In this document: piece after piece, positions 23,824-42,828 of the stretch
Layout: each line of letters starts with the position of its first letter
Position numbering within the stretch: the stretch's first letter is position 1
Origin: Escherichia coli
GTDB taxonomy: Bacteria > Pseudomonadota > Gammaproteobacteria > Enterobacterales > Enterobacteriaceae
NCBI RefSeq assembly: GCF_965641715.1
Contig: NZ_OZ282453.1
Length of the DNA stretch: 64,000 nucleotides
Reading direction: 5' to 3' (one strand)
Made by a program: the position numbers and the translations under genes
The notes under the pieces: model-generated
The model's input: only the letters and a program-made list of their open reading frames with translations
Database searches by the model: none
What the model was told of the DNA's origin: nothing

Positions 23824-24933
23824 TCACTCTGTTTCTGCTATCCATTCCGGGATTTTTGCTTCAAGCTCAAGCTGCGTGGTAAAGCCACTGTTATCAATGG
23901 TGTGCTCGGCTTTCGCAATAATCCAGTCCTGATTATCAATCTCGCTTTTAAATCCTGTTACCGTGCCATGCATTTCGGGGTAGAGTTCTGCTCGTCCACG
24001 TGTCAGCGTGATGGAGAATGATGCGGCTCCGCGTTGTAGTTGTTGCCACTTTGCCGCCGCTGCGCGTCTTGCTGCCTGCTCGTTCTGATAAGTCTTGCGT
24101 AACACAAACACATTGCCTTCCGCGCCTTCCATATAATCACCTTCACGGCTGCTGCTTTTCTCTTTTTTCGGTTTTGGCGGTTTGCGGCGTTTCACGCTGA
24201 CTTTTTTCTTTTTCCCGTAATTAAGATCAAGCCAGTAAGCGCGTACCCCCGTATACGCTTCGCGGTCAGCAATGCGGAACTGATGGCGATCGCCACTGCT
24301 GCGTGTGATGGCGAACGATGGCAACGGCTGGCCCTGTGCGTTCACGCCACCGCCGGGCATGATGAATAACAGATTACCGCTTTTTACCGTGGTGATTGCG
24401 CCCAGCATTTCCGCCATGCGCGTAAGGAAGGACATGTCACTTTCTTCGGTCTGGTCGGCGTGGTCGATTTCGATATCCATCAGCATTTCGCTGATTTGCG
24501 GTTTCAGACCGTACCGATGAGCGATGGCGGATACCACACGCTCAACGGTCACATCATGCCAGGACACCTCACGTTTAACGTTAAATTCATCCCGAAAATC
24601 TGCGCTTCTGGCTGAAACAGTCAGCCTGTCCGGCGGTCCTTCGTGTGCGATTTCATCAACAATGTAAGAGCCTTTTTCTGCCAGCGGTTCGCCTTTCCAG
24701 CCAATGAGAACCGTCAGGCGCGCGCCCCGTGGCGGTAGCTGCAACTGACCATCCGCATCATCCAGCGTGATGGTTAGCTGATCTGCCTCAAATCCCCGGT
24801 TGTCGGTCAGCGACAGGCTCATCAGGCGCTCTGCCACTCCGGACAGCGTTTTACCCTCCGCGAGAATATCAAAATCCGGCATTTTTACGGGGTCTGTGCT
24901 CTGACTGAGCAATTGCATGGTGGTATCGGTCAT
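23824..24933 (-). CDS. D: Tail protein gpD (late control gene D family)
   Basis: Conserved segments shared with P2 gpD (SLSLTDNRGFEADQL, RSADFRDEF, basic KKKVSVKRRKPPKPKK stretch, C-terminal GFTTQLELE). Start placed at MTDTTMQLL; the track ORF runs 44 codons further upstream. Confidence 0.8.
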   Translation of the reverse strand: MTDTTMQLLSQSTDPVKMPDFDILAEGKTLSGVAERLMSLSLTDNRGFEADQLTITLDDADGQLQLPPRGARLTVLIGWKGEPLAEKGSYIVDEIAHEGPPDRLTVSARSADFRDEFNVKREVSWHDVTVERVVSAIAHRYGLKPQISEMLMDIEIDHADQTEESDMSFLTRMAEMLGAITTVKSGNLLFIMPGGGVNAQGQPLPSFAITRSSGDRHQFRIADREAYTGVRAYWLDLNYGKKKKVSVKRRKPPKPKKEKSSSREGDYMEGAEGNVFVLRKTYQNEQAARRAAAAKWQQLQRGAASFSITLTRGRAELYPEMHGTVTGFKSEIDNQDWIIAKAEHTIDNSGFTTQLELEAKIPEWIAETE

Positions 24934-25090
24934 CTGCTTCCTCCCTGTGCGGCATGGTCGCATGTGCGTGTGGAGGGGGTTACTGCTTTTTGTTGTCGCC
25001 GTGGCGGGAGAACGGCGCAGGGGTGAGATTACGCGCGTGGTGGGTGATGATTGTTGCCGAATCATTTAACGGATACAAGGGGCTGAAGCT

Positions 25091-26275
25091 ATGAGTGAAA
25101 CTCGTTTTCATGGTGCCCGTGTTACGGAAAATACCGATCTGGTAACAGCGATTAACGATGTTGATTCCAGCGTTATCGGTATCGTGGCAACGGCGGATGA
25201 TGCGGACGCGAATCTGTTCCCGCTGAACAAGCCCACACTGCTGACCCGCGTCAATGACGTGCTGGGAAAATGCGGGACAACGGGGACGCTTTATCGTGCG
25301 CTTAAGGCCATCGCAGACCAGGTGAGCACAAAGGTGATCGTCGTTCGCGTGGCTGAACACAAAGAAGAAGACGGAAAGACGCAGGATCAACTGGTTATCG
25401 GTGGTTCTGAGGATGACGGCAGCTATACGGGGATGTATGCGCTGCTTGTTGCAGAGCAGGATGAAAGCATCGGATACCGTCCGCGTATTCTGGCCGCGCC
25501 GGAGCTGGACACGGAGGCGGTAACGAAATCCCTGTGCGTGATTGCAGGTAAACTGCGCGCGTTTGTGTATGCCTCATGTCACGGCTGTAACACGATGGCT
25601 GAGGCGATTACCTACCGCCAGAAATTCAACGAACGTGAGGTGATGCTCTTATGGCCGGACTTCATCGCCTACAACCCGAAAAGTGGCAAAAACGAAACGT
25701 TCCCCGCACCTGCCTATGCGTGCGGCCTTCGTGCGTACATTGACCATGAGCAGGGGTGGCACAAATCACTGTCCAACGTTCCGGTTAAAAATGTGCTGGG
25801 GATGTCGAAGCATGTGTTCTGGTCGTTGCAGGCCGAAGACAGCGATGCCAACAGCCTCAACAACAAAGAAATCACGACCATTATTCGTCGCAACGGGTTC
25901 CGCTTCTGGGGCAACCGCACACCGGAAACGAACGCCTACATCTTTGAGGTGTATACCCGAACCGCACAGGTGCTGGCTGATTCAATTGCGGAAGCGCAGT
26001 TTGAAACCATCGACAGTCCACTGACGCCTGCGAACGTGAAGGATGTTATCAGTGCCATCAGGGCAAAACTGGATTCACTGGTTACTGCCGGGAAACTGAT
26101 TGGCGCGGAGTGCTGGTATGACGTGGTGGATAACAGCACCACGGATTTACGTCAGGGGCGCGTGCGTATTCGCTACAAATATACGCCCGTTCCGCCACTG
26201 GAAGACATGGAGCTTTACCAGACGTTTACTGATGAATACTTTGAACCCGCATTTGCGGTGCTGGGAGGTGCCTGA
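25091..26275 (+). CDS. FI: Contractile tail sheath protein gpFI
   Basis: 394 aa; extended similarity to P2 FI (FPLNKP, KLRAF, WPDF, DHEQGWHKSLSNV, RRNGFRFWGNRT, YTRTAQV, YTPVPPLE). Confidence 0.9.
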   Translation: MSETRFHGARVTENTDLVTAINDVDSSVIGIVATADDADANLFPLNKPTLLTRVNDVLGKCGTTGTLYRALKAIADQVSTKVIVVRVAEHKEEDGKTQDQLVIGGSEDDGSYTGMYALLVAEQDESIGYRPRILAAPELDTEAVTKSLCVIAGKLRAFVYASCHGCNTMAEAITYRQKFNEREVMLLWPDFIAYNPKSGKNETFPAPAYACGLRAYIDHEQGWHKSLSNVPVKNVLGMSKHVFWSLQAEDSDANSLNNKEITTIIRRNGFRFWGNRTPETNAYIFEVYTRTAQVLADSIAEAQFETIDSPLTPANVKDVISAIRAKLDSLVTAGKLIGAECWYDVVDNSTTDLRQGRVRIRYKYTPVPPLEDMELYQTFTDEYFEPAFAVLGGA

Positions 26276-26787
26276 TGGCTGTGCCAAAACATCTTCGCTT
26301 TTTTACGCTGTTTGTGGATGGTGAAAACGAAGTGGGTAAGGTGACGTCCGTCACTCTGCCTAAGCTGACGCGCAAAACCGACAGCTACCGGGGTGGCGGC
26401 ATGATGGGTGCGGTAAGTATTGATCTCGGTCTGGACGACTCCGCGCTTGATGCGAGCTTTGTCATGGGGGGCGCAGTTCGTGAGCTGTTCCTTAAGTATG
26501 GCGGCACGATTGACGGCACGCTGCTGCGTTTTGCGGGTGAATACTACACCGATGCAGAAAGCGACCTGTATGAAGTCGAAATGCGCGGACGTGTGACGGA
26601 AATTGATATGGGGGAAGCCAAACAGGGCGAAGCCACATCACACACTTACGCCATTAAAAACACCTACTACAAGCTGAGTGTTAACGATCGCCCGTTGTGG
26701 GAGATTGACCTGCTGAACTTCATCTACCGGAAGGACGGCAAGGACATTGTGCCTGACCGTATCCGTTCCGCGCTTGGGCTTGGCTGA
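26275..26787 (+). CDS. FII: Tail tube protein gpFII
   Basis: 170 aa, immediately after the sheath gene (ATGATGGCT overlap); size and position as P2 FII. Confidence 0.85.
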   Translation: MAVPKHLRFFTLFVDGENEVGKVTSVTLPKLTRKTDSYRGGGMMGAVSIDLGLDDSALDASFVMGGAVRELFLKYGGTIDGTLLRFAGEYYTDAESDLYEVEMRGRVTEIDMGEAKQGEATSHTYAIKNTYYKLSVNDRPLWEIDLLNFIYRKDGKDIVPDRIRSALGLG

Positions 26788-26841
26788 TAAGTAATATGCA
26801 GGCGGCGCAGTGCGTCGCCTCTGACTGAAAGGAGTTTCCTG

Positions 26842-27207
26842 ATGAAAGAGACGAAAAACATCGATACCGAAAACACGGTAGTTACTGACACTGTGAAAGA
26901 AACCAGTGAGCGTGGCGTAAAACTTACCCAACCAATTGAGCGAGGCGGCGAAAAAATCACGTATGTGGAGATCACCGGGGCTATTGAGCAGGCTGGATCT
27001 CTGCGAGATTTGTCGCTGTCTGATGTGCTGAATCTGAAAGCGGAATCCATGTTTACGCTGCTGTCACGCGTGACATCACCGCGACTGGATGAAGTGACGA
27101 TCAAAAAAATGGCATCCCGTGACTTTATTCAGTTATGTGTGGTTGCCGTAAATTTTTTGAGCGGTGCGGACTCTGGCGGGAAGAACGAACAGGCGACGGA
27201 AGCCTGA
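26842..27207 (+). CDS. E: Tail assembly chaperone gpE
   Basis: 121-aa acidic ORF between tube and tape-measure genes; carries a slippery site near its 3' end. Confidence 0.75.
   Translation: MKETKNIDTENTVVTDTVKETSERGVKLTQPIERGGEKITYVEITGAIEQAGSLRDLSLSDVLNLKAESMFTLLSRVTSPRLDEVTIKKMASRDFIQLCVVAVNFLSGADSGGKNEQATEA
27153..27159 (+). other. Programmed -1 frameshift site for the E+E' fusion chaperone
   Basis: Heptamer T TTT TTG in the gpE frame; the -1 frame stays open to 27371 (E' extension), the same device P2 uses. Confidence 0.7.
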
Positions 27208-27321
27208 TCACGGTTGTGTGCTTTGAGCACATAGAAGACTTTGTGGCGGATATTGCCGCCATTTTTAACTGGTCGCCCGCCGAAATCTTCATGATGACTC
27301 CCGGCGAAGTGGTTAGCTGGC

Positions 27322-30165
27322 GTGAGCGGGCGGCACTTCGCAGCGGGAATACAGACAATGAAGACTCTTGATATCCGGGTCGCTTTCAGCGCCGTTGACA
27401 GGCTGACCCGGCCTGCCGAAAACGCCCGCCGCCTGATGGGGCAGTTTGGTGACTCCATCCAGCGAACGCAGGGGGCGATCAAAAATCTCGAGCGTCAGGC
27501 GCGTTCATTTGAGCGCGCCCGTGACGCTGTCAGTAAAGCGGATGCTGGCATATTGAAAGCACGACGCCAGCTTAACGCTCTTAATCAGTTACAACGCACG
27601 GGTACAGTGCTCAGCGAAAAACAACAAAAGCTGATGCAGCAGTTAAGCACCCGGCTTGAACGCCTGAATGAATCGCGCACACGGGAAATTCAGAAAATGC
27701 GGGAACTTGGCGGAGAGCTGAAACGCCACGGCATTTCCCTGACAGGCAGCGATAACACCATCCAGCAGGCCATCAGACGCACCGAACAGTACAACAACCA
27801 GCTTGAACGCGAACGGCAGGCGCTTGCGCGTGTAACGCGGGCGCGTGAGCGGTATTCGCGCGCGCAGGAAACCGCGGGAAAACTGAAAACAGGTGGTGCG
27901 CTGGCAATTGGTGCGGCAGCGGCGGGCGGCTATGCTGCCGGGCGTTTTTTGCAGCCCGCGATCGGGTTCGGCAAAGAGATGTCCCGCGTTCAGGCGCTGA
28001 CGCGAATCGACCAGAACAGCCCGCAGTTTAAGGCGCTGCGTGAGCAGGCGTTAAAACTTGGCTCTGAAACGCAGTTCACCGCAGGCGATGCCGCCAGTGG
28101 GCAGGCATTTCTTGCAATGGCTGGCTTCACACCGCAGGCCATTCAGGCTGCGCTCCCCGGAGTGCTGAGCATGGCAACGGCTGGCGGTATGGATCTCGGC
28201 GAGACGGCAGATATTGGCTCAAATATCCTGACGCAGTTCGGCCTTTCTGCTGACCAGATGGACCGGGTCGGTGACACGCTCACCGCAGCGTTTACCCGTA
28301 CCAACACTGACCTTCGCGCACTGGGCGAAACCATGAAATATGCAGGTCCGGTGGCGGGCAAGCTGGGAATATCGCTGGAGCAGGCCGCAGCGATGGCGGG
28401 CGTGCTGGCGAATATGGGTATCAGGGGAAGTGATGCCGGGACGGCAATGCGTGCCAGCCTGGCTCGTCTTGCATCACCGCCAAAGGCGGCAGCAGAGGCG
28501 CTGAAAGAGCTTGGTGTGGCAGTCTCTGACGCGAACGGCAAAATGCGCCCGATGGAGGATGTGCTGGCCGACCTTTATAAAGCCACCCGCAAATACGGGG
28601 AAGTTGACCGGGTATCGTTCTTTAAGGACATTGCCGGAGAAGAGGCTTTCACATCGTTTATGGCGCTCGTTGATGCAGCGGGTGACGGTTCCTTACCTAA
28701 ACTGAGAAAAGAACTTGAAGGCGCGCGCGGTGAGGCTGAACGCACAGCAAAGGTTATGGCCAACAACCTTGACGGCGATCTGAAATCACTCGGCAGTGCA
28801 TGGGAAGGGTTGCGCATCCGCATTGCAGATCTGATTGACGGCCCGCTGCGTTCTGTCACGCAGTGGCTCACGCGGGTGGTATCAAGGGTGACGGCGCTGG
28901 CGCAGGCCCATCCGGCACTGACGCGCCAGCTACTGATAGCAGGCGGTGCGTTGCTGGCAATGACTGCAACGATTGGCTCGTTGTCGCTGGTTATTGGCGT
29001 GCTTCACGGGAAACTGGCCACGTTACGTCTTGGTTTTTCTCTCCTGACCGGATCAATGAATGTCGTCAGGGTGCTGCCAGCACTATGGGGAATGGTAACA
29101 GGTTCCATCTCGTTGCTGGGTGGCGCTATCGGGGCGCTGTTCAGTCCGGTCGGATTGATTGTTGCCGCGTTTGTGGCTGCGGCGGTTCTCATCTGGAAAT
29201 ACTGGGAACCCATCAAGGCGTTTTATGCCGGGGTGTTCAGTGGAATTATGGAACGGCTGGCTCCGTTGCGCGAAACCTTTGAACGGTTTGGTCCTGTTTT
29301 TGATGTCGTGCGCGATGGGATTATTCAGCTCTTTAACTGGTTTAAATCGCTGCTGTCACCGATGGAGTCCAGCAAGGAAACGCTGGATAAATGTACCAGT
29401 GCTGGCGAGATATTCGGTAACGTTCTTGGTGGCGCGCTACAGCTTGTTCTGACGCCTGCAAAAATGCTGCTGGATACGCTGGCGTGGATACTTGAAAAAC
29501 TCGGTGTGCTTCCGGATGAAGCGGAAAGGGCGAGAAAGAAAATCGAAGACGCACAGCGTGCGGCCATTCTTCAGGACAAGGTTGCCTTGCTTCAGGGGGA
29601 CCTGGCGAAAATCAATCCGCCGAAGCCTGTGGAAAATGGCAATGGCACCGGAGGTGATAACCCCAAAGACAATAAACCGCTCACAGACAGCAATACCGGG
29701 ACGCTACGCAGACTCAGCAAAATTGCTGATAACACAGGTAAGCTGGTTGATGAGACGAAAAAACGCATTGGCCCCGGCGATATTGTCTTTAAGAACCTGC
29801 CCCGCGCACTTGCTGTTCGTGGGGAGTGGCAGGAGCGGAAGATTGCGCAGGTCAGTAAGCCTGCCCCCGCAATTAATATCACCCCCGTGGTCCCGGCTCC
29901 GCTGCCTCCGGCGCTGGTCCCTGTTGTTGCGGCCAGCTCCCGCCCGGTGGCGGAGGCCATACGATCTCCAGTGGCATCAGTTCCTGTAACTTCCCGTAAC
30001 CGGGAGCCTGTTGCCTCCGGATTTGGTGGTGAAATTCATGTTCATCTGCATAACGTTGTTACGCAGAATCCCCGCGAACTGGCGAAACTGGTCGGTGAAA
30101 TGGTCAGGGCAGAAATGGAACGGCGCGCCCGTGCCGGGCGTGGCAGTTTTTACGATAAAGATTGA
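27322..30165 (+). CDS. T: Tail tape-measure protein gpT
   Basis: 947 aa, Ala/Gly-rich with coiled-coil N-terminus and central hydrophobic segments; follows E/E'. Confidence 0.88.
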   Translation: MSGRHFAAGIQTMKTLDIRVAFSAVDRLTRPAENARRLMGQFGDSIQRTQGAIKNLERQARSFERARDAVSKADAGILKARRQLNALNQLQRTGTVLSEKQQKLMQQLSTRLERLNESRTREIQKMRELGGELKRHGISLTGSDNTIQQAIRRTEQYNNQLERERQALARVTRARERYSRAQETAGKLKTGGALAIGAAAAGGYAAGRFLQPAIGFGKEMSRVQALTRIDQNSPQFKALREQALKLGSETQFTAGDAASGQAFLAMAGFTPQAIQAALPGVLSMATAGGMDLGETADIGSNILTQFGLSADQMDRVGDTLTAAFTRTNTDLRALGETMKYAGPVAGKLGISLEQAAAMAGVLANMGIRGSDAGTAMRASLARLASPPKAAAEALKELGVAVSDANGKMRPMEDVLADLYKATRKYGEVDRVSFFKDIAGEEAFTSFMALVDAAGDGSLPKLRKELEGARGEAERTAKVMANNLDGDLKSLGSAWEGLRIRIADLIDGPLRSVTQWLTRVVSRVTALAQAHPALTRQLLIAGGALLAMTATIGSLSLVIGVLHGKLATLRLGFSLLTGSMNVVRVLPALWGMVTGSISLLGGAIGALFSPVGLIVAAFVAAAVLIWKYWEPIKAFYAGVFSGIMERLAPLRETFERFGPVFDVVRDGIIQLFNWFKSLLSPMESSKETLDKCTSAGEIFGNVLGGALQLVLTPAKMLLDTLAWILEKLGVLPDEAERARKKIEDAQRAAILQDKVALLQGDLAKINPPKPVENGNGTGGDNPKDNKPLTDSNTGTLRRLSKIADNTGKLVDETKKRIGPGDIVFKNLPRALAVRGEWQERKIAQVSKPAPAINITPVVPAPLPPALVPVVAASSRPVAEAIRSPVASVPVTSRNREPVASGFGGEIHVHLHNVVTQNPRELAKLVGEMVRAEMERRARAGRGSFYDKD

Positions 30166-30171
30166 GGAGTC

Positions 30172-30666
30172 ATGGCCATGATGATGATCTACGGCATGTT
30201 TGTTTTTGAGCTGCGCACGTTGCCGCATCAGCAGTTACAGCAAAACAAAAGCTGGCGGCATGTGAAAAATGAACGCGTTAACCGTTCAGCAAGCTGGCAG
30301 TATATCGGGGCAGGCGATGATCGCATCGTTCTTTCTGGTGTGCTTTATCCTGAAATTACAGGTGGCGAAGTGTCGCTTTCGTTGCTGACCACGCAGGCAT
30401 ATACAGGACGCCCCTGGCCTCTGATTGATGGTGTCGGGCAGATTTACGGCATGTATGTCCTGACCGGAACGAATACGACCCGTTCCGAGTTTGATCGCTA
30501 CGGTAAGGCGAAAAAGATAGAATTTTCACTGACCCTTGAACGCTGTGATGAGGATTTGCGGGAGCGCCTGCAATCCTCATCGTTCAGCGATATGCTGTCC
30601 GGCTTCAAAGATAAGGTGACATCATCTCTTAACAGCGCGGCCAGTTCAGTTAAAGGGCTGTTCTGA
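30172..30666 (+). CDS. U: Tail protein gpU
   Basis: 164-aa ORF directly after the tape-measure gene, the position and size of P2 gpU. Confidence 0.75.
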   Translation: MAMMMIYGMFVFELRTLPHQQLQQNKSWRHVKNERVNRSASWQYIGAGDDRIVLSGVLYPEITGGEVSLSLLTTQAYTGRPWPLIDGVGQIYGMYVLTGTNTTRSEFDRYGKAKKIEFSLTLERCDEDLRERLQSSSFSDMLSGFKDKVTSSLNSAASSVKGLF

Positions 30667-30675
30667 TTTAACACA

Positions 30676-30709
30676 AAAACCGCTAATGGTCAGATTAGCG
30701 GTTATTTTG
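30676..30709. terminator. Bidirectional intrinsic terminator between gpU and the invertase gene
   Basis: aaaaaccgctaatggtcagattagcggttattttgtttt: a 9-bp perfect stem (accgctaat/attagcggt) flanked by A-run and T-run, between convergent genes. Confidence 0.7.
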
Positions 30710-31307
30710 TTTTCTGACTCTTCTCTATTGCTCCGCTTGATTCTCCTGCGGGGTGGTAACGATAAATCGTCGATGTACCAATGCCGTAAATTATTGCCAG
30801 TTGTTTTCTGTCGTGACCGTTTTTAATCAGCCTTGCTATTTGCTCATGCTGTTCTTTTGTCAGCTTCGGGCGACGTCCGCCTGTGCGCCCCCGTGCGCGC
30901 GCTGCTGCCAGTCCGGCCAGTGTACGTTCAACAATTAATTCACGTTCCATTTCAGCCAGGGCACCCATCACGTGGAAGAAAAAACGCCCCATTGGAGAAG
31001 ATGTATCTATGCTGTCGGTCAGACTGCGAAAATTAATCCCTCGCTCCCGTAGTTCCCCGACGAGAGAAATCAGATGTTTCATGCTTCGCCCGAGGCGATC
31101 CAGTTTCCAGACAACCAGCGTGTCACCTTTTTGAAGACGCTTTAAAGCGCGTTTTAATCCCGGTCGGTCTGTCTTTGTCCCGCTTAATTTATCTTCAAAT
31201 ATTTGTTCACATCCTGCACAAACAAGAGCGTTTCGTTGCAGGTCTGTATTCTGGTCATTTGTTGATACCCTTACATAGCCAATCAGCACGCTGAATCTCC
31301 CGTCCAA
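30702..31307 (-). CDS. Serine DNA invertase (Hin/Gin/Cin/Pin family)
   Basis: IGYVRVSTNDQNTDLQRNAL...GDTLVVWKLDRLGRSMKHL...MGRFFFHVMGALAEMERELIVERT, near-identical in pattern to Hin/Gin including the catalytic Ser; C-terminal HTH. True start may lie a few codons inside the ORF. Confidence 0.9.
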   Translation of the reverse strand: MDGRFSVLIGYVRVSTNDQNTDLQRNALVCAGCEQIFEDKLSGTKTDRPGLKRALKRLQKGDTLVVWKLDRLGRSMKHLISLVGELRERGINFRSLTDSIDTSSPMGRFFFHVMGALAEMERELIVERTLAGLAAARARGRTGGRRPKLTKEQHEQIARLIKNGHDRKQLAIIYGIGTSTIYRYHPAGESSGAIEKSQKTK

Positions 31308-31342
31308 AAGCGTAAATCATGCCATGCAGGTCAGAAACGGCC

Positions 31343-31368
31343 ATTATCTAAAACCTCGGTTTACAGGA
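31343..31368. repeat. Invertase crossover site, left (gix/hix-like 26-mer)
   Basis: ttatctaaaacctcggtttacaggaa, an imperfect palindrome of the Hin/Gin site type; inverted copy at 34409..34434. Confidence 0.8.
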
Positions 31369-32374
31369 AACGGTAAACAGGGCTGGTAACGCCGTGCAAA
31401 AAAATGGCGATACTTTGTCCGGTGGGCTTACTTTTGAAAATGACTCAATCCTTGCCTGGATTCGAAATACTGACTGGGCGAAGATTGGATTTAAAAATGA
31501 TGCCGATGGTGACACTGATTCATACATGTGGTTTGAGACAGGCGACAACGGCAATGAATATTTCAAATGGAGAAGCAAACAAAGCACCACAACAAAAGAC
31601 CTGATGAATCTTAAATGGGATGCTTTGTATGTTCTTGTTAAAGCTCTTTTCAGCAGTGAAGTAAAAATATCGACAGTCAATGCACTGAGGATATTTAATT
31701 CATCTTTTGGTGCCATTTTTCGCCGTTCTGAAGAATGCCTGCATATCATCCCTACACGAGAGAATGAGGGGGAAAATGGTAATATAGGGCCACTACGTCC
31801 CTTTACGCTTAATCTCAGAACTGGCCGCATAACTATGGGGCATGGTCTGGATGTTACAGGAGATATAACAACTAACGCCTGGGTGTATGCAAACAGGTTT
31901 GCTATTAATAGTGGCTCAACCTCATGGATTGATATGCGAAACCAGAATGTCATTTTTGGTAGAAACGCAGTATCAACAAGTTCTGCGCAGGCTTTGTTAA
32001 GACAAGACCATGCAGAACGCAAATTTTTTGTCGGTGGACTTGGTAACTACCAGTTTGGTTTTTACATGATTAATAACTCAAGGACAGCCAATGGCACCGA
32101 TGGTCAGGCGTACATGGACAATAACGGTAACTGGCTTTGTGGCTCGCAAGTTATTCCTGGCAACTATGGCAATTTTGATTCCAGATATGTGAGAGATGTT
32201 CGCCTGGGTACGCGAGTTGTTCAATTGATGGCGCGTGGTGGTCGTTATGAAAAAGCCGGACACGCAATTACCGGATTAAGAATCATTGGTGAAGTAGATG
32301 GCGATGATGAAGCCATCTTCAGGCCAATACAAAAATACATCAATGGCACATGGTATAACGTCGCACAGGTGTAA
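31369..32374 (+). CDS. Alternative tail-fibre C-terminal cassette (silent in this orientation)
   Basis: Frame open from the crossover site; encodes ETVNRAGNAVQKNGD..., parallel to the H segment after its own site, and ends ...INGTWYNVAQV like the expressed fibre. No promoter or N-terminus of its own. Confidence 0.75.
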
Positions 32375-32905
32375 ATGATGCAGCATTTAAAAAATATTAA
32401 GTCTGGAAATCCTAAAACGAAAGAACAATATCAGCTAACAAAGAATTTTGATGTTATCTGGTTATGGTCCGAAGACGATAAAAACTGGTATGAGGAAGTG
32501 AAAAACTTTCAGCCAGACACAATAAAGATTGTTTACGATGCAAATAATATTATTGTCGCCATCACTAAAGATGCCTCCACGCTTAACCCTGAAGGTTTTA
32601 GCGTCGTTGAGGTTCCTGATATTACAGCCAACCGCCGCGCTGATGATTCAGGAAAGTGGATGTTTAAGGATGGAGCTGTAGTTAAACGGATTTATACGGC
32701 AGACGAACAGCAACAACAAGGCGAATCACAAAAGGCCGCATTGCTTTCCGAAGCTGAATCAGTCATCCAGCCGCTGGAACGCGCTGTCAGGCTGAATATG
32801 GCAACAGACGAGGAACGCACACGACTGGAAGCATGGGAACGCTACAGTGTTCTGGTCAGCCGTGTGGATACGGCAAATCCTGAATGGCCACAAAAGCCTG
32901 AATAA
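32375..32905 (+). CDS. Tail-fibre assembly chaperone (partner of the silent cassette)
   Basis: 176 aa, [26 protein letters not shown]...; clear paralog of the oppositely oriented 177-aa ORF. Confidence 0.8.
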
Positions 32906-32933
32906 AAATTAAGGCCCGCGATCGGGCCTTGTC

Positions 32934-33467
32934 TCATTCAGGTTGTTCGGGAAATGTTACTGGCAGGCTGGAGGTGTCTGTAGATTCGACTTTCTGCGCA
33001 TAGAGCATCCACTCGGTTAATTTTTGTTTATTCTCGTCGGAAATGATGCCCAGCCGTAGCTGTGAGTCCCATAGCTGGGTTTTATCCCTAACGAGCTGTA
33101 GCAGGCTTTGCTTTTCATTTTCCGCCTGCTGCCTCTGCTCTTCCTCGGTATAAGTTCGCTTTACCACTACGCCATCTTTGAACATCCATTTACCAGAAAT
33201 ATCAGCCCGGCGATTTGCTGTAATATCAGGAACCTCAACGACGCTTGCGCCTTCTGGATTAATTGCTGAAACATCCTTTTCAATACAAATAATAACGTTG
33301 TTGTGGTCATAGACCATTTTCAACGTATCAGGCTGAAAGTTCTTTTGTTCCTCATACCAGTTTTTCCCATCCTCTGTATAAAGCCATTTGATGTTAAATT
33401 GTTTCGTTAGCTGGTATTGCTCTTTTGTTTTAGGGTTGCCAGCAGTAATATTTTTTAAGTGCATCAT
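32934..33467 (-). CDS. Tail-fibre assembly chaperone (partner of the expressed fibre)
   Basis: 177 aa, [25 protein letters not shown]...; directly downstream of H on the same strand. Confidence 0.8.
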
Positions 33468-33469
33468 AA

Positions 33470-35698
33470 TTAAATACTCCCCGCGTTATACCACGTCCCA
33501 TTAATGCAATACTGAATTGGCCTTGCCTGAGTTGTATCAATTAATTCATCACGGTTTCCGTTAACTGAACCCGTAACGACATAACCTGACCTGTCAGACC
33601 AGCCGGGACCATTCCATGTCTGAACAGATGACAGACCGCCAAGGCGAATACCTGTAATAAACCTTGAGTTACATTCTGCCTGCGTGTATGCACCAACATC
33701 TCCCGCAGAGGGTTTGCGGGTCGTGGTGTAAAACTCTGACCAGTTAGCCTCAAATCCATAACCATCACGCGCTGAACGATAAAAAATACCGCCGTTCCTG
33801 TAATTCACGCGGAACTGTACAGCAGGGCAGCTCCCCGTATTCATATTGAAGTGGAGGATTAATGTCGATGCACCGCTGATATCTGCATCATAAACACCGC
33901 TATTCCAGTTCCAGCCAACAGCTTTATCATTTGCAACCCTGCTTCCTGTTTGCCCTAAAGCAAATGCAGGCTGCTGGTTTTTCGTGTTGTAGTCTCTTCG
34001 CCAGCCAGGAGCATAAGCATCACCATGATTAATATAAGTGAATTGAGCGTTAGAGGTGCCGCCTCCGGTGGAAGTGCTTGGTGTTGTTACACGGATGGTC
34101 ATGGCACCTTTATTACCCATAACCTCAATAACGCAACCTGCAAGATGAATAGTTCCACAGCCAGTATCGGTAATAATTTTATTATTGCCGTATGACCATG
34201 AACATTTGCACATCCAGTATGGGTGATTGAATGCCCCTTGAGAATCCAGCCATTCAATCAATTGTGCCGTTGTCCAGTTCCCTGCCCCTGTACTAATAGC
34301 ACTGTGAAAAGCGCGACATGCACCAATATTTTTTGTGAAGGTATCTTTTCCTGGAATATCTGCGCCGTTCTGGTTTTTCTGTAATGCGCCAGAAGCCTGA
34401 TTTACCGTTTCTTGTAAACCGAGGTATTCGATAACGGCAGCAACGGTCGATTTCGCAAGAATATCCCGCCCGACTTTTGTCAGGGTTGCCAGGCTGGCGA
34501 CATCATTCCCCGTAAAATACGGAAACCTGTCTGCCGCAGTAGCAAGCCCGGCCAGCGCCGTCAGGGTGGCATCTTTCGGTTGCTTACCCGCAAGCGCGTT
34601 AGTCATGGTGGTCGCAAAATTCGGGTCGTTTCCCAGCGCCGCCGCTAACTCGTTCAGCGTATTCAGTGCGTCAGGTGACGAATCTACAAGGGCGGCAATC
34701 GCAGCCATAACGAAAGCCGTGCTTGCGATTTGGGTATTATTCGTTCCCTGTCGCGCAGTTGGCGTTGTTGGCGTTCCGGTCAGCGCAGGACTGTTTAAGG
34801 GCGCTTTCTTGTTCGTTTCATCCATTACCGCCTTAACCGCTTTCGATGTCGCGGCCAGTGTTTCAGACGTGCTGTTGGTGGCACTACTGAGCTGGACTAT
34901 CCCTTTTTGTGCCGTCGTGGCGTCCTGAGCGGTATATTTTGCGTTAGCAAGGTCATACGCGGCCTTTACTGCTTTCGGCGTTGCAGCCTGCGTTTCAGAC
35001 GTGCTGTTGGTGGCGCTACTGAGCTGAACTATCCCTTTTCGCGCAGTGGTAGCGTCCTGTGCGGTGTATTTGCCATTAGCCAGGTCATATGCCGCCTTAA
35101 CAGCCTTTGGCGTTGCCGCAAGCGTTTCAGACGTGCTGTTAGTGGCGCTGCTAAGTTGAACAAAGCCTTTTGCGGTCAGCGAGGCGTCCGGGTGACGTCG
35201 TGAGTGTTCATGCTCTTTCAGTTTGTCATCCACGTAATCCACTGTGGCCATTACCATGGTGTTATCCACGGTAAGCGCCACGGTGGCAGTGCTGGATACG
35301 GTCAGAATGGTGCGAAATGTTTGTGCACGTCCTGACCCTTCGGCAACGGTTGGCTTGTAACTTTCGGCAGTATTGCCTACTGCGATTAAATCGCCGTGCT
35401 CATCAAACACACCAATTTCCCGGATCCAGAATCCGCCCGTTTCTGGAGGAATAACCAGCTCCGCAATAATGCGGTTCTGATGTGTTGCGTCCAGGATGAC
35501 GCGATTAACAGTGTGTCGCCACACCTCATGCACCAGACGGGTCTGCTTACTGTCTGGTGTGGGCAACGTGCCGCCACCGTCGCCCACGGCCATATGAGTC
35601 AGGCGGACAGGCTTACCATCTGGCGCGGCTGCCTGAGCTAATTTTTTTGCACCCGTATCGGTGATAACGGTTTTAAATTTTCGTGTTGTGGTACTCAT
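33470..35698 (-). CDS. H: Tail fibre protein gpH (constant N-terminus plus currently selected variable C-terminus)
   Basis: 742 aa; conserved phage-fibre N-terminus, three tandem 43-aa repeats, crossover site near codon 421, C-terminus ...[12 protein letters not shown]. Confidence 0.85.
34409..34434. repeat. Invertase crossover site, right (gix/hix-like 26-mer, inside gene H)
   Basis: ttcttgtaaaccgaggtattcgataa, the inverted partner of the left site. Confidence 0.8.
34906..35290. repeat. Three tandem ~129-bp repeats inside the tail-fibre gene
   Basis: The DNA repeats encode [43 protein letters not shown] three times with minor variation. Confidence 0.7.
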
Positions 35699-35700
35699 GC

Positions 35701-36231
35701 TTAATCGTCCGGATAAATGGTAATGACTTCACCGTCGTAAGTTGCTGCCGCCGCGAAAATATCTCCCGGGATCTCCTGAATGATATTCAGCCCTGTCATG
35801 TGGCGGCTGACCGGGCGGGCATCAGCAATCAACCGCTCCATTTCCAGATACATTTCCTCCGTCACGCCACTGTCCAGCGTGCCGACTTCAACGGTAAATG
35901 TTCCCGGTTCTCCGTCGAACTCCCACCACTCAGACACGCGAATGAGGTATCCCAGCGGCTCAATGGCCCGGCGCAGTGCGCTGATGGTCCCTTTGTGTCG
36001 GTGTATCAGCCATGCATCACGAATCACCTGTCGCTTTGTCTCTTCCGGCCAGTTGCGATCCCAGCGGTCAACGGAAAATGCCCAGGCGAGATAAGGCAGC
36101 AAATGCACCGGGCAGGTGTCCGGTGACCACAGCGTGTTGAGGTCTACCGGGATGTCTGTAATGCGCGCTCCGACAGCTTCGGCGCAACGCATGAAACGGC
36201 TGGCTGATGGCGGTAACAGTGAATTACTCAT
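35701..36231 (-). CDS. I: Baseplate protein gpI
   Basis: Syntenic between J and H. Start placed at MSNSLLPPSASRF, about 176 aa; the track ORF extends 11 codons further upstream. Confidence 0.75.
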   Translation of the reverse strand: MSNSLLPPSASRFMRCAEAVGARITDIPVDLNTLWSPDTCPVHLLPYLAWAFSVDRWDRNWPEETKRQVIRDAWLIHRHKGTISALRRAIEPLGYLIRVSEWWEFDGEPGTFTVEVGTLDSGVTEEMYLEMERLIADARPVSRHMTGLNIIQEIPGDIFAAAATYDGEVITIYPDD

Positions 36232-37120
36232 TGCGCCCACCTTCGCTGATGGTGAATGACTCACAGCGCGCCGCCTGTATGTCGCTGATGGCCAGATTCT
36301 GTGTGGGTTCGATTATCTCCACGCGTTGCACACCGTGCACATGCAGTGCGGCAGCAATGGCGGACAACGCCACGTCCTGACCGATAAGCCCCTGCTCAGC
36401 CAGCCACTTCCTGAACGACGATTCAGCCGCCGCCAGAATAGGTTCGGATTCCGGGCCGGGGTAAAAGTACAGTTTTGCATTCAGCCGCCATGTCACGATT
36501 CTGGCACTCTGTACGGTCAGGCGGTCGGCCACCGGGCGGGTATCCTCTGCATTCAGAACGGCGCGAACGGTATTAAGCAACGCCTCCGTTGCTGTGCCGT
36601 CGCCCTCAGTGGACAGGATGGAAACCGTCACGTTGGCCGGAGACGGGCTGATGGCCCGCGCATCGCGCACCAGACCGCTGGCGCTGCGTGCAAAATACTC
36701 GTATGCGCCTGACGGGCCAGCAACACTCAGACCATCATACGCCCGTTGCGCCCGCAGTCTCAGCGAGGTGTCGCTCTCCATCACCGCGTCGGTGGTATCC
36801 GTTGCCGGAGTGATAACCAGGCGCTTTGTGTTCATATTGCCCGCGAGGTTGTCCAGGTCTGTTCCGGTGCTGTGGCTCAACATGCAGGCGCGTGCGCCCT
36901 CGTTAACCCGCTGGCGTAACAGCATTTCACGAAACGACATGGTTTGAGCGATAACGTTCAGGGGTTCCGATTCCAGCTCCAGCGCGGCGGAGACGGCTTC
37001 ACGCTGTTCGGCGGGATAAGCCGCAATCATCATGGCCTTTGTGTCAGCCAGAATTGCTTCAAAGTCAGGCTCCGCGATGATGGCGGGTTCCGGTAACTGG
37101 GAAAGGTCAACGGCAGGCAT
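36224..37120 (-). CDS. J: Baseplate wedge protein gpJ
   Basis: 298 aa, size and position of P2 gpJ. Confidence 0.8.
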   Translation of the reverse strand: MPAVDLSQLPEPAIIAEPDFEAILADTKAMMIAAYPAEQREAVSAALELESEPLNVIAQTMSFREMLLRQRVNEGARACMLSHSTGTDLDNLAGNMNTKRLVITPATDTTDAVMESDTSLRLRAQRAYDGLSVAGPSGAYEYFARSASGLVRDARAISPSPANVTVSILSTEGDGTATEALLNTVRAVLNAEDTRPVADRLTVQSARIVTWRLNAKLYFYPGPESEPILAAAESSFRKWLAEQGLIGQDVALSAIAAALHVHGVQRVEIIEPTQNLAISDIQAARCESFTISEGGRNE

Positions 37121-37123
37121 GAT

Positions 37124-37474
37124 TTACTCCCTCAGCGTGATGGTTAATTCAACATTCTGCATGGTCTGCATGACAGTACCCGACAGCGTCACCCCGGCGC
37201 GGCCTCCTGCTTTCCAGACAACGTCGATGGCATCCAGGGCAATGCGGGGTTCCCATCGCGTCAGTGCAATCACGGCAGCACTCATGCATTGCAGACGCGT
37301 GGTGTTATTCATGGGTTCGTCAATTAAATCAGGCACAAGGCTGCCATATTCCCGTCGCATAACCCGGCTTGCCAGCGGGGTGATCAGGATGTCCCTGACT
37401 GACTGTTTCAGGTGCTCCATATCGTTCAGGTTTCCCGTCCCGTCCGGGTTCATTCCTGTGTAGCGGGTTGTCAC
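37124..37474 (-). CDS. W: Baseplate protein gpW
   Basis: 116 aa, between V and J as in P2. Confidence 0.8.
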   Translation of the reverse strand: MTTRYTGMNPDGTGNLNDMEHLKQSVRDILITPLASRVMRREYGSLVPDLIDEPMNNTTRLQCMSAAVIALTRWEPRIALDAIDVVWKAGGRAGVTLSGTVMQTMQNVELTITLRE

Positions 37475-38052
37475 TGCGGGCCTCCTGTCGAATCGCTGCC
37501 ACCTTTAACGCCACCGTGTTTATGCGTATGCACTGTGATGCCGTTTGAGGTGAAATCGCCGCCGCTGTGCGTGATATTGCCGCTCATCTTTCCCCCTTTT
37601 GTGACGTCAAGCGTCGCTGTTCTCAGAAGGTCTGTGCATTCCACGACAGGCGTGTCCAGTGTCACACTGACGGATGCCTGCAGGGTGGCCGTTTTCATGC
37701 CGCTGGCGCTCAGTGCGCCTGCGTCTGCGTCGTAGCGGAACACCGCGCCATCCGGCGCGCTGACCACGATTTCTTTCAGGCTTTTGCCTGGGGCCGGAAT
37801 GGCATCACTCCACAGGCTGCCAATTATCATGGCGGTTTCCGGGTTGCCGCCAATGCAGGCAATGACCACCTGTTCGCCTGGTGATGGCGGCAGCCACACA
37901 TTGAAGGCTCCCGCGCGCGTGGTGTTCCAGCGCAACCAGCCTGTTTCCAGTTCGCCGCTGCGAACGCGCACGCGCCAGGACTTCTCATCAACTTCAGAGA
38001 TGATCCCGGTGCGGATGATATTGCTCAGTAGCCGCATGAGTTCTGCGCTCAC
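37471..38052 (-). CDS. V: Baseplate spike/hub protein gpV
   Basis: 193 aa with a Gly-rich C-terminal tip (HTHKHGGVKGGSDSTGGP); syntenic. Confidence 0.8.
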   Translation of the reverse strand: MSAELMRLLSNIIRTGIISEVDEKSWRVRVRSGELETGWLRWNTTRAGAFNVWLPPSPGEQVVIACIGGNPETAMIIGSLWSDAIPAPGKSLKEIVVSAPDGAVFRYDADAGALSASGMKTATLQASVSVTLDTPVVECTDLLRTATLDVTKGGKMSGNITHSGGDFTSNGITVHTHKHGGVKGGSDSTGGPQ

Positions 38053-38693
38053 CGTACAGCCTCCGCAATCCGGCCCAGCACCGTGTTATAAATCAGGCGC
38101 TCATCTGCCTGGCTGATACCCAGCAGCTCACGTACCGGGTAATCGGTGAAAATGCCCGGCGCAACCTGATCGCGCTCACCGAACTGATGAACGCGTGCAA
38201 TACGTGCGGCCACGCCGCTGTAACCCACCGTCACACCGGAAGCATCTGCACGGGCTTTCAGGTAGCGGGCGGTGCGCAGTTTTACGAACATGGGGACGCG
38301 CCTGGTGCTGTCCTGGTTGATGCGCCGGGTGCGTATTTCCAGAAAGCGGTCGATGTCATCCCGGTAAAACGTGCGGATGCTGTTTTTATCCTCATCCCAC
38401 CCGGTGATGGTTCGCCCGTATTTCCCCGTGTCGTGATGCCAGTTTTTCAGCGTGCGTGCTTCGTTATTCCAGATAAAGCGAATGCGCTCCTGTATCCGGG
38501 TTACGCGGCGTCTGCGTGGTGTCCATGCGGTCCCGTCCGGCGCTTTCTGTGACCGGATGCGCGCCTGCTGGGCGCGGCGTAAATCCTGTGCCAGCTTTCT
38601 GGCGATGTTATTGATGGCCTGCTGATTCAGGCTGTCGCGGATGGCCTCAAAGGTTTCATCCACGCGGGTGAATGCCTTATCCATCGCTTTCAC
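38049..38693 (-). CDS. Tail completion / virion morphogenesis protein (gpS-like)
   Basis: 214 aa with an ARIARVHQFG segment typical of the gpS morphogenesis family; longer than P2 gpS. Confidence 0.7.
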   Translation of the reverse strand: MKAMDKAFTRVDETFEAIRDSLNQQAINNIARKLAQDLRRAQQARIRSQKAPDGTAWTPRRRRVTRIQERIRFIWNNEARTLKNWHHDTGKYGRTITGWDEDKNSIRTFYRDDIDRFLEIRTRRINQDSTRRVPMFVKLRTARYLKARADASGVTVGYSGVAARIARVHQFGERDQVAPGIFTDYPVRELLGISQADERLIYNTVLGRIAEAVR

Positions 38694-39144
38694 CCCACGT
38701 CACATCCTGGAATACATGCGACCAGTCGCCTTCGGAGGAGGGCAGGCGGGGTTTTGGCTCCGGCAGGTGTTCTGCCTGCGGTGTCCCCTGACTGTTGCGC
38801 GTGATGCGAACGCGTTCCCGCAGGGGGAGCGTAAACAGGAGATCGGCGCTGTCATCGTCATTGATAACGGCGGAAAATTTGATGTCCTGATTACACTCCG
38901 GATTAAGCAACAACTGTGGCTGATTTTCGGATAACCACGCCAGCAGCGGCAGCGTGAGGTCGTCCAGCTCTCCGGCGTAATCCATGACAAACATCACCAT
39001 CTGATAGCGGTAAACAAACGAGGGCGTTTCTCCGGTCGTTTCAATGTTGCCGCTCTCCACGAAAATGGTGAATTTTTCCGGGTTGGCCTGACACCATCGG
39101 CATGAACGGGTCATGGCTTCACGCAGGGAATCAGTTTTCAGCAT
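38677..39144 (-). CDS. Tail completion protein gpR-like
   Basis: 155 aa, syntenic between the lysis genes and gpS. Confidence 0.7.
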   Translation of the reverse strand: MLKTDSLREAMTRSCRWCQANPEKFTIFVESGNIETTGETPSFVYRYQMVMFVMDYAGELDDLTLPLLAWLSENQPQLLLNPECNQDIKFSAVINDDDSADLLFTLPLRERVRITRNSQGTPQAEHLPEPKPRLPSSEGDWSHVFQDVTWGESDG

Positions 39145-39184
39145 GGTTGTTGTCCTCGTTATTCACTTGTTGCAGTTCATGAGG

Positions 39185-39730
39185 TTACAGGGCTACACGT
39201 TCTTTCATCCAGCCATAGACAAACGACTCGTTAGCCTCGCGTTTCTCTGCCAGCTCCAGATAGCGTTCGCCCTGCGTACAGTTCATTGCAGACAACATCA
39301 CCATCTCGCCGTCCCGACCGCGTTTTTCCAGATATGCACGCAATGCGTTAATCGTGCGTGGGCCAGTGCGTCCGTCCGTGTCCATATCGGGATACAGTTT
39401 CCCGCCCTGATTGAATACGTTCAGCCAGCGCTGAAGCATTCTGGTTGCCACAGACGGCCCCATATTTACTCCGGTGTCACACAGTTCTGCGGCAATATCC
39501 GGGGACAGCTTCGCTATCTGATCAAAACGCGGTCCGTACCAGTAATCAGCTTCAAGGATTTCCAGTGCCTGTCCGCGAGTTAAATCACGCATATCGCCAC
39601 GGTATCCGTGCGCCCGTGCCACCTTTTCAGTGATGCCCCATTTTGTCGGACCGCCTCTGTCATCCGGGTGATTGACGTAGCCGCCTTCTTTGCCAAGAAC
39701 GACATCAAAAATTTCGTCTTTCGATTTCAT
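39185..39730 (-). CDS. Endolysin, GH108-type muramidase with C-terminal peptidoglycan-binding domain
   Basis: N-terminal EGGYVNHPDDRGGPTKWGIT as in the GH108 lysozyme family; sits in the P2 gene K position. Confidence 0.75.
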   Translation of the reverse strand: MKSKDEIFDVVLGKEGGYVNHPDDRGGPTKWGITEKVARAHGYRGDMRDLTRGQALEILEADYWYGPRFDQIAKLSPDIAAELCDTGVNMGPSVATRMLQRWLNVFNQGGKLYPDMDTDGRTGPRTINALRAYLEKRGRDGEMVMLSAMNCTQGERYLELAEKREANESFVYGWMKERVAL

Positions 39731-39784
39731 TTCGTCACCTCTGTGAATGATTTTTATGGTGATTACCGGCTTTAAGCCTGCGAC

Positions 39785-40111
39785 TTATTCATCTCCCTTT
39801 TGGGTTATGCGGTTAAAGGCGGCAATGATCTTGTCGCGTGCTTTTTCTGCGCCCATAAAACCGATAGATGCGCCGAAAAACGTCACGGCATCTTCAGGAA
39901 CTCCGAAGAAGCGCAACGACCCGGCCACGGCCATGGCAAGAACGCCGCACGCCAGCGATCCCGTTACGGTCTGAACCAGCGTTCGTCCGTCATAAAGACT
40001 CATCAGCGCGGAAATGCTGACTGCCGCGCCTGCTGCATACACCGTTGGCAGGTGGTCAAAGAGCCACGCAATAACCTGCTCTGTGATCCCTGTTTGAATA
40101 GTGCTCACTAC
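39785..40111 (-). CDS. Putative holin
   Basis: ~108-aa product with two or three TM helices between gpX and the endolysin. Proposed GTG start overlaps the gpX stop (TAGTG); the track's 180-aa ORF overextends upstream in another register. Confidence 0.6.
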   Translation of the reverse strand, partial: VVSTIQTGITEQVIAWLFDHLPTVYAAGAAVSISALMSLYDGRTLVQTVTGSLACGVLAMAVAGSLRFFGVPEDAVTFFGASIGFMGAEKARDKIIAAFNRITQKGDE

Positions 40112-40317
40112 TACTCCCCCCACAACTGAATCATTTCTCGTTTCTTCTTCTCCGGCTCCGGCATCTCCACGTCCTGCCCGGGGTCCAGAAATACCTGCTG
40201 ACAGAGTCCGGGGTTGGCATCCAGCACCTTTTCGGTGACGCCCTGCGTCGTGCCGTAGTACCGGAAACAGAGCGAATCCACGGTGTCGCCTTCCAGTGCC
40301 TTCACTTTCATCAGCAC
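40111..40317 (-). CDS. X: Tail protein gpX
   Basis: 68 aa, MLMKVKALEGDTVDSLCFRYYGTTQGVTEKVLDANPGL..., closely parallel to P2 gpX. Confidence 0.85.
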   Translation of the reverse strand: MLMKVKALEGDTVDSLCFRYYGTTQGVTEKVLDANPGLCQQVFLDPGQDVEMPEPEKKKREMIQLWGE

Positions 40318-40814
40318 AACTCCGCAAAGATTCGCGGTCGTCCCAGAATGTCAGAGATGGCCCAGCTCACATCGCGCCACAAATCCGATGTCTGTATATC
40401 CAGTGCGTCCGCCCGGCGGTCGCCCTTATCCGTTGTGTCCGCATCGCGGTAACGCTCCAGAATCAGGGCGCGTGTGGCGGTATAAACGGCATTGCGCCAG
40501 TGCCAGAGATTGACGCTTTCTCCGTTAATTACGGGTGCCGGAACATCGGCCAGCGTCTGGTGGCCAGCCGCCTGCTGTTCCTGCTGCCACGCTTCCAGCT
40601 CGCGGGTAACGTGTGCCACGGCCCCGGTGGCGGTATGCAGCAGGCGGGAGGTGGTCACACGGCCCGGCAGTCGTATCGCCAGACGCAGCTCACGCAGCAC
40701 AATATCCGGCCAGAATGCGCCCGCTGAAATACGGGTATCACCATCATCGGTATCGGTGATGTCGTCCTCTGCGGGGCCGGGGTTGGTTCTGGCAACCATA
40801 CTCATGGGGTTCAC
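40311..40814 (-). CDS. L: Head completion protein gpL
   Basis: 167 aa, syntenic between M and X. Confidence 0.8.
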   Translation of the reverse strand: MNPMSMVARTNPGPAEDDITDTDDGDTRISAGAFWPDIVLRELRLAIRLPGRVTTSRLLHTATGAVAHVTRELEAWQQEQQAAGHQTLADVPAPVINGESVNLWHWRNAVYTATRALILERYRDADTTDKGDRRADALDIQTSDLWRDVSWAISDILGRPRIFAELC

Positions 40815-40906
40815 TCCTGAAAAAATCGGGCGGTGGGTGCGCGGTGTAAACGGTCACGGAGTCAAACCGGAACACCGTGCACGCCGCCCGCTGACGGGGT
40901 CAGTCG

Positions 40907-41707
40907 TTAAACGCGCTTCGCCTTCTGCGTCGCGGTGGTTTTTCGTGTTGCAGGCTTCCGCGTTGTCTTTTTACTTTTGCTGCTTTCGTCCTGCGCCTGC
41001 TGTGCGCTGGCGTCATCTGGGGCGGCTGCGGAATCGGCTTTTTTCAGGGCGCGGGAAAGGGTTGCAATCTCGCGTTTCACACCTGCGTTCGGGTTCAGGT
41101 GCATCGCTTCGCGCAGCAGCTTCAGTGACAGGGCCATGCTGTCCGCATCGCTCAGGCCACGGCGGGCAAAGGCGCACGCCTTGCATAATTTGGCGCGTAC
41201 TTCGTCCGGCATATCCTGGTCGGTGACAATCTCCCGGAGGGTGTCCAGTGGTTCGATAAAGGCGGACAAATCCGCGTCGGCATCCGTCCCGGCCTGCGTC
41301 AGTACCGGGTTGCAGATTTCTTCGGTCAGCACTGTGGCAGCAGTACGGCCAAAGTTATCCGGCATGATGAGGTTGTGACGGACCACATACGCACCAATAC
41401 GCAATGCCAGCGGAAGATCGCCACAGTCAATCGCCCACACCATCAGCGTGGCAATCACCTCATCCTGCTGCCCGCCGTCAGCCTCCAGCGTTCCTTCAAT
41501 CCAGCCAGAAAAGTCCGGTAACAACTCTTTTTTGATGGCGGCTTTGGCGCTTCTGGCCTGTACGCCCTTAAGTCGGGCCTGTGCCAGACGCAGACGATAC
41601 AGCACCTCTTCATGCGCGGTACGTGCGGCGTGATCCACGCCTTCATTCGCCCGGCCTGCGCGCTGCGCCATCACGTTCTGCCAGTGTTGCTGTGCAGGGG
41701 TAATCAT
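40907..41707 (-). CDS. M: Terminase small/endonuclease subunit gpM
   Basis: 266 aa with a basic C-terminal tail; between capsid and head-completion genes. Confidence 0.8.
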   Translation of the reverse strand: MITPAQQHWQNVMAQRAGRANEGVDHAARTAHEEVLYRLRLAQARLKGVQARSAKAAIKKELLPDFSGWIEGTLEADGGQQDEVIATLMVWAIDCGDLPLALRIGAYVVRHNLIMPDNFGRTAATVLTEEICNPVLTQAGTDADADLSAFIEPLDTLREIVTDQDMPDEVRAKLCKACAFARRGLSDADSMALSLKLLREAMHLNPNAGVKREIATLSRALKKADSAAAPDDASAQQAQDESSKSKKTTRKPATRKTTATQKAKRV

Positions 41708-41752
41708 TCTTTCTCTCCGTTACAGGCGGGCATGATGCCCGCCGTGAGTTGA

Positions 41753-42805: not shown

Positions 42806-42828
42806 AAAAATTTTGCTCCTTTGTCTTA

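Follow-up and report, generated by a model that had tools for sequence, protein, structure and literature searches.

A probable two-state Gin/Cin-type inversion switch for the tail-fibre end in a P88-like prophage of Escherichia coli

Introduction

Inversion of a DNA segment by a serine invertase has been a textbook mechanism since the descriptions of the Mu G segment, the P1 C segment, and Salmonella Hin. Here we describe a locus of this kind in the tail-fibre gene H of a P88-like prophage. It lies in a stretch of 64,000 nucleotides of Escherichia coli DNA (contig NZ_OZ282453.1, assembly GCF_965641715.1), which is referred to below as the window. The locus is very probably a two-state switch of the Gin/Cin type, in which site-specific inversion exchanges the receptor-binding end of the tail fibre of this P2-family prophage. 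Such a switch is already known and holds no new principle. A first reading of the window made from the sequence alone (the sequence-only reading) had implied more novelty than the locus has, as the same switch is annotated in the reference P2-like Xuanwuvirus phages P88, 503458, and 520873, and experiments have demonstrated inversion in P2-like prophages of E. coli (PMC4272514). Mild interest attaches only to the mosaic build of the invertase and to the silence of the P88 paper on the switch.

The nearest counterparts are the Xuanwuvirus phages P88, 503458, 520873, and Citrobacter phiSM, which share with the present locus the order T, U, invertase, silent cassette, two chaperones, H, I, J, W, V. 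P88 also has the same outer half-sites; it differs in the opposite orientation of its reference sequence, in its integration site, and in its host background. In the P88 fibre of 764 amino acids, residues 716-746 set the host range, and positions 730 and 744 are critical (PMC5285337). The P88 paper mentions neither the invertase nor inversion and so provides no experiment in favour of switching by P88 itself. The P2-like prophages of enteropathogenic E. coli (EPEC) E2348/69 are, by their description, similar in having an invertase, inverted repeats, and alternating fibre C-termini (PMC4272514). Sequencing and polymerase chain reaction (PCR) revealed that both orientations coexist in these prophages (Goldberg et al., 2014; PMC4272514). 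They differ in that one locus carries three repeats and takes four states (PMC4272514). In the P2-like fibre hotspot, a 2024 preprint also notes invertases that have inversions next to them.

Outside the P2 family, the Mu G segment is alike in size (3.07 kb here and 3,059 bp by the boundaries given in the Mu record) and in its layout of Sc, site, Sv, U, U', Sv', site, and invertase. In both, the invertase gene starts 67 bp past the crossover and is transcribed away from the segment. Mu is a transposable phage with a short Sc, whereas the carrier here belongs to the P2 family and has a P2 H-type constant part of 421 amino acids with Phage_tail_fib and fibre repeats. The host ranges of Mu G(+) and G(-) have been measured, and G(+), which expresses S/U, infects E. 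coli K-12 (PMC4406740). The C segment of P1 and P7 has the same function and provides the closest named homologues of the cassettes and chaperones. The P1 segment differs in its length of 4.2 kb and in its cin gene, which is transcribed towards the segment and ends at cixL; the Cin protein is 73% identical to the prophage invertase. The S' fibre of P1 depends on O-antigen (bioRxiv 10.1101/2022.07.24.501295). Salmonella Hin with its hix sites resembles the present system in recombinase family, site type, DNA-binding domain, and Fis-contact residues, but it flips a promoter (about 1 kb) and exchanges no coding cassettes. Canonical P2 has V-W-J-I-H-G and FI-...-D on one strand and no invertase, and the sequence-only reading was right to say that it lacks such a switch.

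Results

Two inverted sites and an in-frame exchange of the fibre end

The sequence-only reading placed a serine invertase next to a segment bounded by 26-bp inverted repeats, and all of these elements were found where it had put them. The left recombination site (31344..31369, plus strand; TTATCTAAAACCTCGGTTTACAGGAA) is gix-like and lies in non-coding DNA with its crossover dinucleotide TC at 31356-31357. Its counterpart in the alignment is Mu gixR, which lies equally far from gin. The right site (34409..34434, minus strand; TTCTTGTAAACCGAGGTATTCGATAA) is located inside gene H. It had been placed near codon 421; its position within H holds, and the exact place is codons 422-430, with the crossover dinucleotide at 34421-34422 falling in codon 426. 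Both sites are imperfect palindromes in inverted orientation, identical at 23 of the 26 positions, with the common central dinucleotide TC/GA. A degenerate site pattern allowing up to three mismatches matched exactly twice in the window (0.03 matches expected), and none of 100 shuffled sequences reached two. The sites are embedded in a longer inverted repeat of 65 nucleotides (31340-31404 and 34374-34438) that is 77% complementary. The segment between them measures 3,067 bp (31356-34422), both crossover dinucleotides counted.

Gene H is at present an open reading frame (ORF) of 742 amino acids at 33470..35698 on the minus strand. Its constant N-terminal part of the P2 H type (34435..35698, minus strand) matches the Pfam Phage_tail_fib N-terminal domain (1.4e-53) and Phage_fiber_2, the latter in three stretches, and is 98-99% identical to phage 503458 and to the prophage of strain GPEC548. 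The variable C-terminal part now expressed (33470..34408, minus strand) is continuous with this ORF and is of the S' type, with 94.6% identity to P1 Sv' and 88% to Mu S'. At the other end of the segment lies a silent C-terminal cassette of the S type (31370..32374, plus strand), which in the present orientation is promoterless and has no start of its own. The cassette, which contains an ORF of 326 amino acids (31394..32374, plus strand), shares 99.4% identity with H of GPEC548, 93% with the expressed end of the P88 fibre (residues 431-764), 73% with P1 Sv, and 66% with Mu S. An ORF of 224 amino acids on the opposite strand (31348..32022, minus strand), antisense to the silent cassette, was dismissed as spurious, since conservation with the P88, P1, and Mu fibres is seen in the plus-strand frame.

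Two tail-fibre assembly chaperone genes face each other between the cassettes. The U-type gene (32375..32905, plus strand; 176 amino acids) follows the silent cassette and matches Pfam Caudo_TAP at 1.3e-36, with 97.7% identity to P1 U and 94% to Mu U. The U'-type gene (32934..33467, minus strand; 177 amino acids) follows the expressed cassette and matches the same family at 4.1e-37, with 96% identity to P1 U' and 98% to Mu U'. The U type thus stands behind the S-type cassette and the U' type behind the S'-type cassette, in two pairs of opposite orientation. This agrees with the earlier proposal of two alternative cassettes, each with its own assembly paralog, and the pairs correspond to S/U and S'/U' of Mu and P1, phages in which exchange of the pairs is known to change the host range. 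Compared as DNA, about 3 kb of the segment (31406-34387) show 95.5% identity to part of the P7 C segment, and identity to the Mu G segment is about 91%.

We reversed the DNA between the two central dinucleotides (31356-34422) in silico. Gene H remained in frame in both states, encoding 742 amino acids in the present state and 764 in the flipped state. Residues 1-433 are common to the two proteins, which then diverge; one of the two forms ends ...YINGTWYNVAQV. The silent cassette was fused in frame to the constant part of H, as had been proposed for the swap of the fibre end, and in either orientation the chaperone gene of the fused cassette lay directly downstream. At the two positions critical in P88, the flipped fibre has Ile730 in place of Leu and keeps Glu744.

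The constant shaft of H contains three tandem Phage_fiber_2 repeats of 132 nucleotides (44 amino acids) at 34828-35189. One copy of this repeat is present in P2, two in an O145 prophage, three in P88 and the present prophage, and four in the phage-plasmid of ATCC 25922, so the fibres of these relatives would differ in length.

Both orientations occur among near-identical relatives

The prophage of GPEC548 has flanks 96.5% identical to those of the present prophage and carries the segment reversed, and the P88 reference likewise corresponds to the flipped state. For a wider survey, two junction queries of 651 bp each, spanning the right site, were compared with 5,426 complete E. coli genomes at a coverage of at least 80%. 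The current-type junction was found in 122 of these genomes and the flipped-type junction in 354, with up to seven matching places per genome.

The alternative P88 fibre, a protein of 744 amino acids, was predicted solely by inverting the P88 reference at its two sites. At least 17 public contigs encode exactly this protein, with the same genes around it. In one of these contigs both flanks are 99.97% identical to P88 and the 3.1-kb segment is inverted. A comparable pair exists within one strain. Two complete assemblies of ATCC 25922 (CP009073.1 and CP158444.1) contain the same phage-plasmid of 48,488 bp with the homologous segment in opposite orientations. The difference is a precise inversion of 3.07 kb with its breakpoints at the predicted sites, which are near-identical to those of the present prophage. 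This phage-plasmid has a P2-type tail, an IncFII-type repA, and an invertase of 184 amino acids that is 56% identical to the prophage invertase.

The flipped fibre of the O145 prophage, whose invertase is identical at 194 of 195 positions and whose silent cassette is frameshifted, had no exact match on record.

An apparently mosaic serine invertase and its predicted enhancer

The invertase gene was mapped as an ORF at 30702..31307 on the minus strand. The true start is likely the GTG at 31289, which has GGGAGA upstream, and the resulting gene (30702..31289) encodes 195 amino acids, a length that agrees with the P88 and GPEC548 homologues. The protein contains the Pfam domains Resolvase (PF00239, 7.9e-50) and HTH_7 (PF02796, 8.7e-14), and it matches the Mu Gin structures 4m6f and 3uj3 in the PDB (E about 1e-98). 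Residues 4-106 are the same as in crystallised Gin save for K38 in place of R38. The catalytic Ser9 is present within the motif GYVRVSTNDQ, and the context of the active site is intact. It is identical to the P88 invertase at 194 of 195 positions. Judged by its sequence, the protein is an intact serine invertase of the Gin/Hin family.

The two domains of the protein differ in their affinities. Identity to Mu Gin is 129/134 over the catalytic domain (residues 1-134) and 26/49 over the DNA-binding domain. The C-terminal helix-turn-helix domain (30705-30887, minus strand) scores slightly higher with Hin (1hcr) than with Gin. In Hin, residues Q151, R154, and L155 in helix 1 of the DNA-binding domain are reported to be invertase-specific residues that contact Fis (PMC3798978). 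An alignment with Hin 1hcr places Q, R, and L at the equivalent positions of the prophage invertase. The invertase looks like a mosaic of a Gin-like catalytic domain and enhancer with a Hin-like DNA-binding domain.

The stretch that corresponds to the recombinational (Fis) enhancer is predicted, by identity to Mu gin, at 31200..31271 on the minus strand. It covers nucleotides 19-90 of the invertase gene, and the P1 record places the Cin enhancer at nucleotides 19-90 of cin. The first 110 nucleotides of the gene are identical to gin, the match is 72/72 over the enhancer-equivalent stretch, and it is 206/210 over the first 210 nucleotides. A scan of these 210 nucleotides for Fis-like 15-mers gave many weak candidates and one pair 48 bp apart. 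The distance of 67 bp between the invertase start and the crossover, with transcription away from the segment, is the geometry of Mu gin and not of P1 cin.

The prophage and its chromosomal setting

The locus belongs to a P88-like prophage (Peduoviridae, Xuanwuvirus type) of 36.4 kb at 21531..57963, with the 20-bp direct repeat AAAATCCTTGTTGATGAAAA at both ends. It is inserted between flk and pdxB, and the unoccupied site is seen in strain PapRG-06-5. The prophage has a P2-type gene set (D, FI, FII, E, T, U, V, W, J, I, H, S, and R) together with genes for lysis, capsid, terminase, portal, an A-type replication protein, Ogr, integrase, and ParM/StbB. Pfam matches to P2 GpU and Tail_P2_I are encoded on either side of the switch locus. 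The FI-FII-E-T-U operon is convergent on V-W-J-I-H with the invertase gene between them, which is, together with ParM/StbB, the arrangement used to assign phages to Xuanwuvirus. The gene order is that of phages 503458 and P88 of this genus, unlike that of P2. Between gene U and the invertase gene, an inverted repeat at 30678..30703 forms a candidate hairpin with T-runs on both sides; it is terminator-like on both strands and may act as a two-way terminator.

The 20-bp integration core overlaps the first codons of pdxB (21528-21550 and 57920-57963). The left end, attL, keeps the native pdxB GTG start, which is followed by phage DNA. At the right end, attR, phage sequence lies upstream of the pdxB body, and an in-frame TTG at 57920 adds seven codons. 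The integrase gene (56742..57761) is located just upstream of pdxB in the same orientation, so expression of pdxB may now depend on phage-end sequences. The chromosomal flanks (1-21530 and 57964-64000) contain fadJ ... fabB, yfcJ, and flk on one side and pdxB, usg, truA, and dedA on the other. They are about 98% identical to a few strains (from baboon and fresh water) and only 90-95% identical to most E. coli; by this measure the host is a divergent Escherichia lineage.

Several further genes of the prophage were noted. A plasmid-type partition pair, Plasmid_stab_B and a ParM/StbA-like protein, is encoded at 48471-49746 (minus strand) inside the integrated prophage. The ParM protein is 98% identical to that of P88 and 96-98% identical across P88 and other Xuanwuvirus phages, and the pair is thus a trait of the genus. 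Plasmids of 47-52 kb exist that carry fibre segments homologous to the segment of the prophage. An overlapping gene pair at 47142-47905, in the variable stretch that separates the portal gene from the replication module, encodes a Fic/Doc toxin (135 amino acids) and a phd/yefM-like antitoxin (118 amino acids), the latter with a match of 29.2 bits, slightly under the Pfam threshold of 29.8. A protein of 111 amino acids (48072-48407, minus strand) has a ClpX-type C4 zinc finger (Pfam zf-C4_ClpX, 3e-17) without the ATPase domain; we speculate that it might interfere with the binding of adaptors to ClpX. The cargo next to attL (21697-22927, minus strand) comprises a secreted protein of 297 amino acids with a VasI domain of type VI secretion and repeated RLSCYDK motifs, which is followed by a zinc-ribbon membrane protein of 110 amino acids.

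Discussion

Direct evidence was obtained for the anatomy of the locus, for the conservation of the H frame in both states, for an intact invertase, for the homology of each part, and for near-identical elements in nature that carry either orientation. At the level of sequence, the locus has every defining feature checked for Fis-dependent invertases and for segments of the Mu G and P1 C type. The sequence-only reading had named a single orientation, together with an inactivated invertase, as the outcome that would speak against a switch. That outcome was not obtained, since the invertase carries no inactivating change and near-identical relatives occur in both orientations. From these relatives we conclude that the switch is almost certainly active.

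The mechanism can be proposed by analogy with the Mu, P1, and Hin systems. Dimers of the invertase would bind the two inverted 26-bp sites, and an invertasome would form with host Fis on the enhancer within the 5' part of that gene. Both sites would then be cut at the central TC, one half would be rotated by 180 degrees, and religation would leave the 3.07 kb inverted; as for the family of Fis-dependent invertases, the reaction would be expected to need Fis and negative supercoiling. Gene H is transcribed as part of the late V-W-J-I-H operon, so that whichever cassette lies downstream of codon 426 is fused to the constant shaft of 425 residues, with its own chaperone gene next. The present orientation would yield the S'-type fibre with the U'-type chaperone, and the flipped orientation the S-type (P88-type) fibre with the U-type chaperone. 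A change of host range between the two orientations is suggested by the same systems and by the likeness of the cassettes to fibres with measured host ranges (PMC4406740; bioRxiv 10.1101/2022.07.24.501295; PMC5285337). The expressed end is 88-95% identical to S' of Mu and P1, and the silent cassette is 66-93% identical to S of the same two phages and to the P88 fibre.

Some observations weigh against a working switch in this particular copy. No sigma-70-like promoter for the invertase gene emerged from a consensus scan of 30600-31500. In its inner half, the right site reads ACAAGAA, while the P88 sites have ACAGGAA; this one substitution, 9 nucleotides from the core dinucleotide, is what distinguishes the right site from that of P88, and in SfMu a single change beside the core was proposed to impair, or block, inversion (PMC4406740). 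The present H protein of 742 amino acids and its flipped form of 764 were both absent from the exact-sequence collection, which speaks neither for nor against inversion. The locus could have inherited its architecture and no longer invert, through weak or absent expression of the invertase or through the change in the right site, leaving the prophage fixed in the S'/U' state. We consider this improbable. The invertase ORF is intact and differs by one residue from that of P88, a lineage that occurs in both orientations. The region upstream of the gene aligns with the Mu gixR-gin region, and the start of the gene is the stretch identical to gin. The TC core is retained in both sites, and the inner half-sites differ at the same positions in relatives that are found in either orientation. 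A switch with more than two fibre variants, as in the Min shufflon of p15B or in one EPEC P2-like prophage, is a further conceivable arrangement, and multi-site versions are known in P2-like prophages (PMC4272514). It was rejected and is hardly credible here, as no third gix-like site was found in the window at up to three mismatches and only two cassettes and two chaperone genes lie between the two sites.

A two-state switch acting on its own segment may have one addition. The invertase might also, or even mainly, act in trans on the fibre switches of other prophages, which would supplement the two-state explanation and not replace it. Near-identical sites are shared by this locus, the ATCC 25922 phage-plasmid, Mu, and P1, though the invertases are only 56-86% identical, and single E. 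coli genomes have several matching places (the maximum of seven noted above); the window itself contains no second substrate. We regard trans action as unlikely on balance. It is with the same reserve that we suggest that the P88-type invertase is a natural chimera. Since Mu, P1, and an unrelated phage-plasmid have sites near-identical to its own, it may cross-activate, or cross-flip, fibre switches of prophages and plasmids that reside in the same cell. If this were true, several elements in that cell would have coupled host ranges.

The two-state switch has consequences for how such prophages are read. The fibre gene that appears partial at 31370-32374 is not a pseudogene, which matters for annotation, and assemblies of one strain can legitimately differ by this 3-kb inversion. 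With two fibre states, a population of lysogens would release a mixture of particles with two host ranges. The prophage therefore likely releases two types of particle that use different receptors, which bears on the prediction of its host range.

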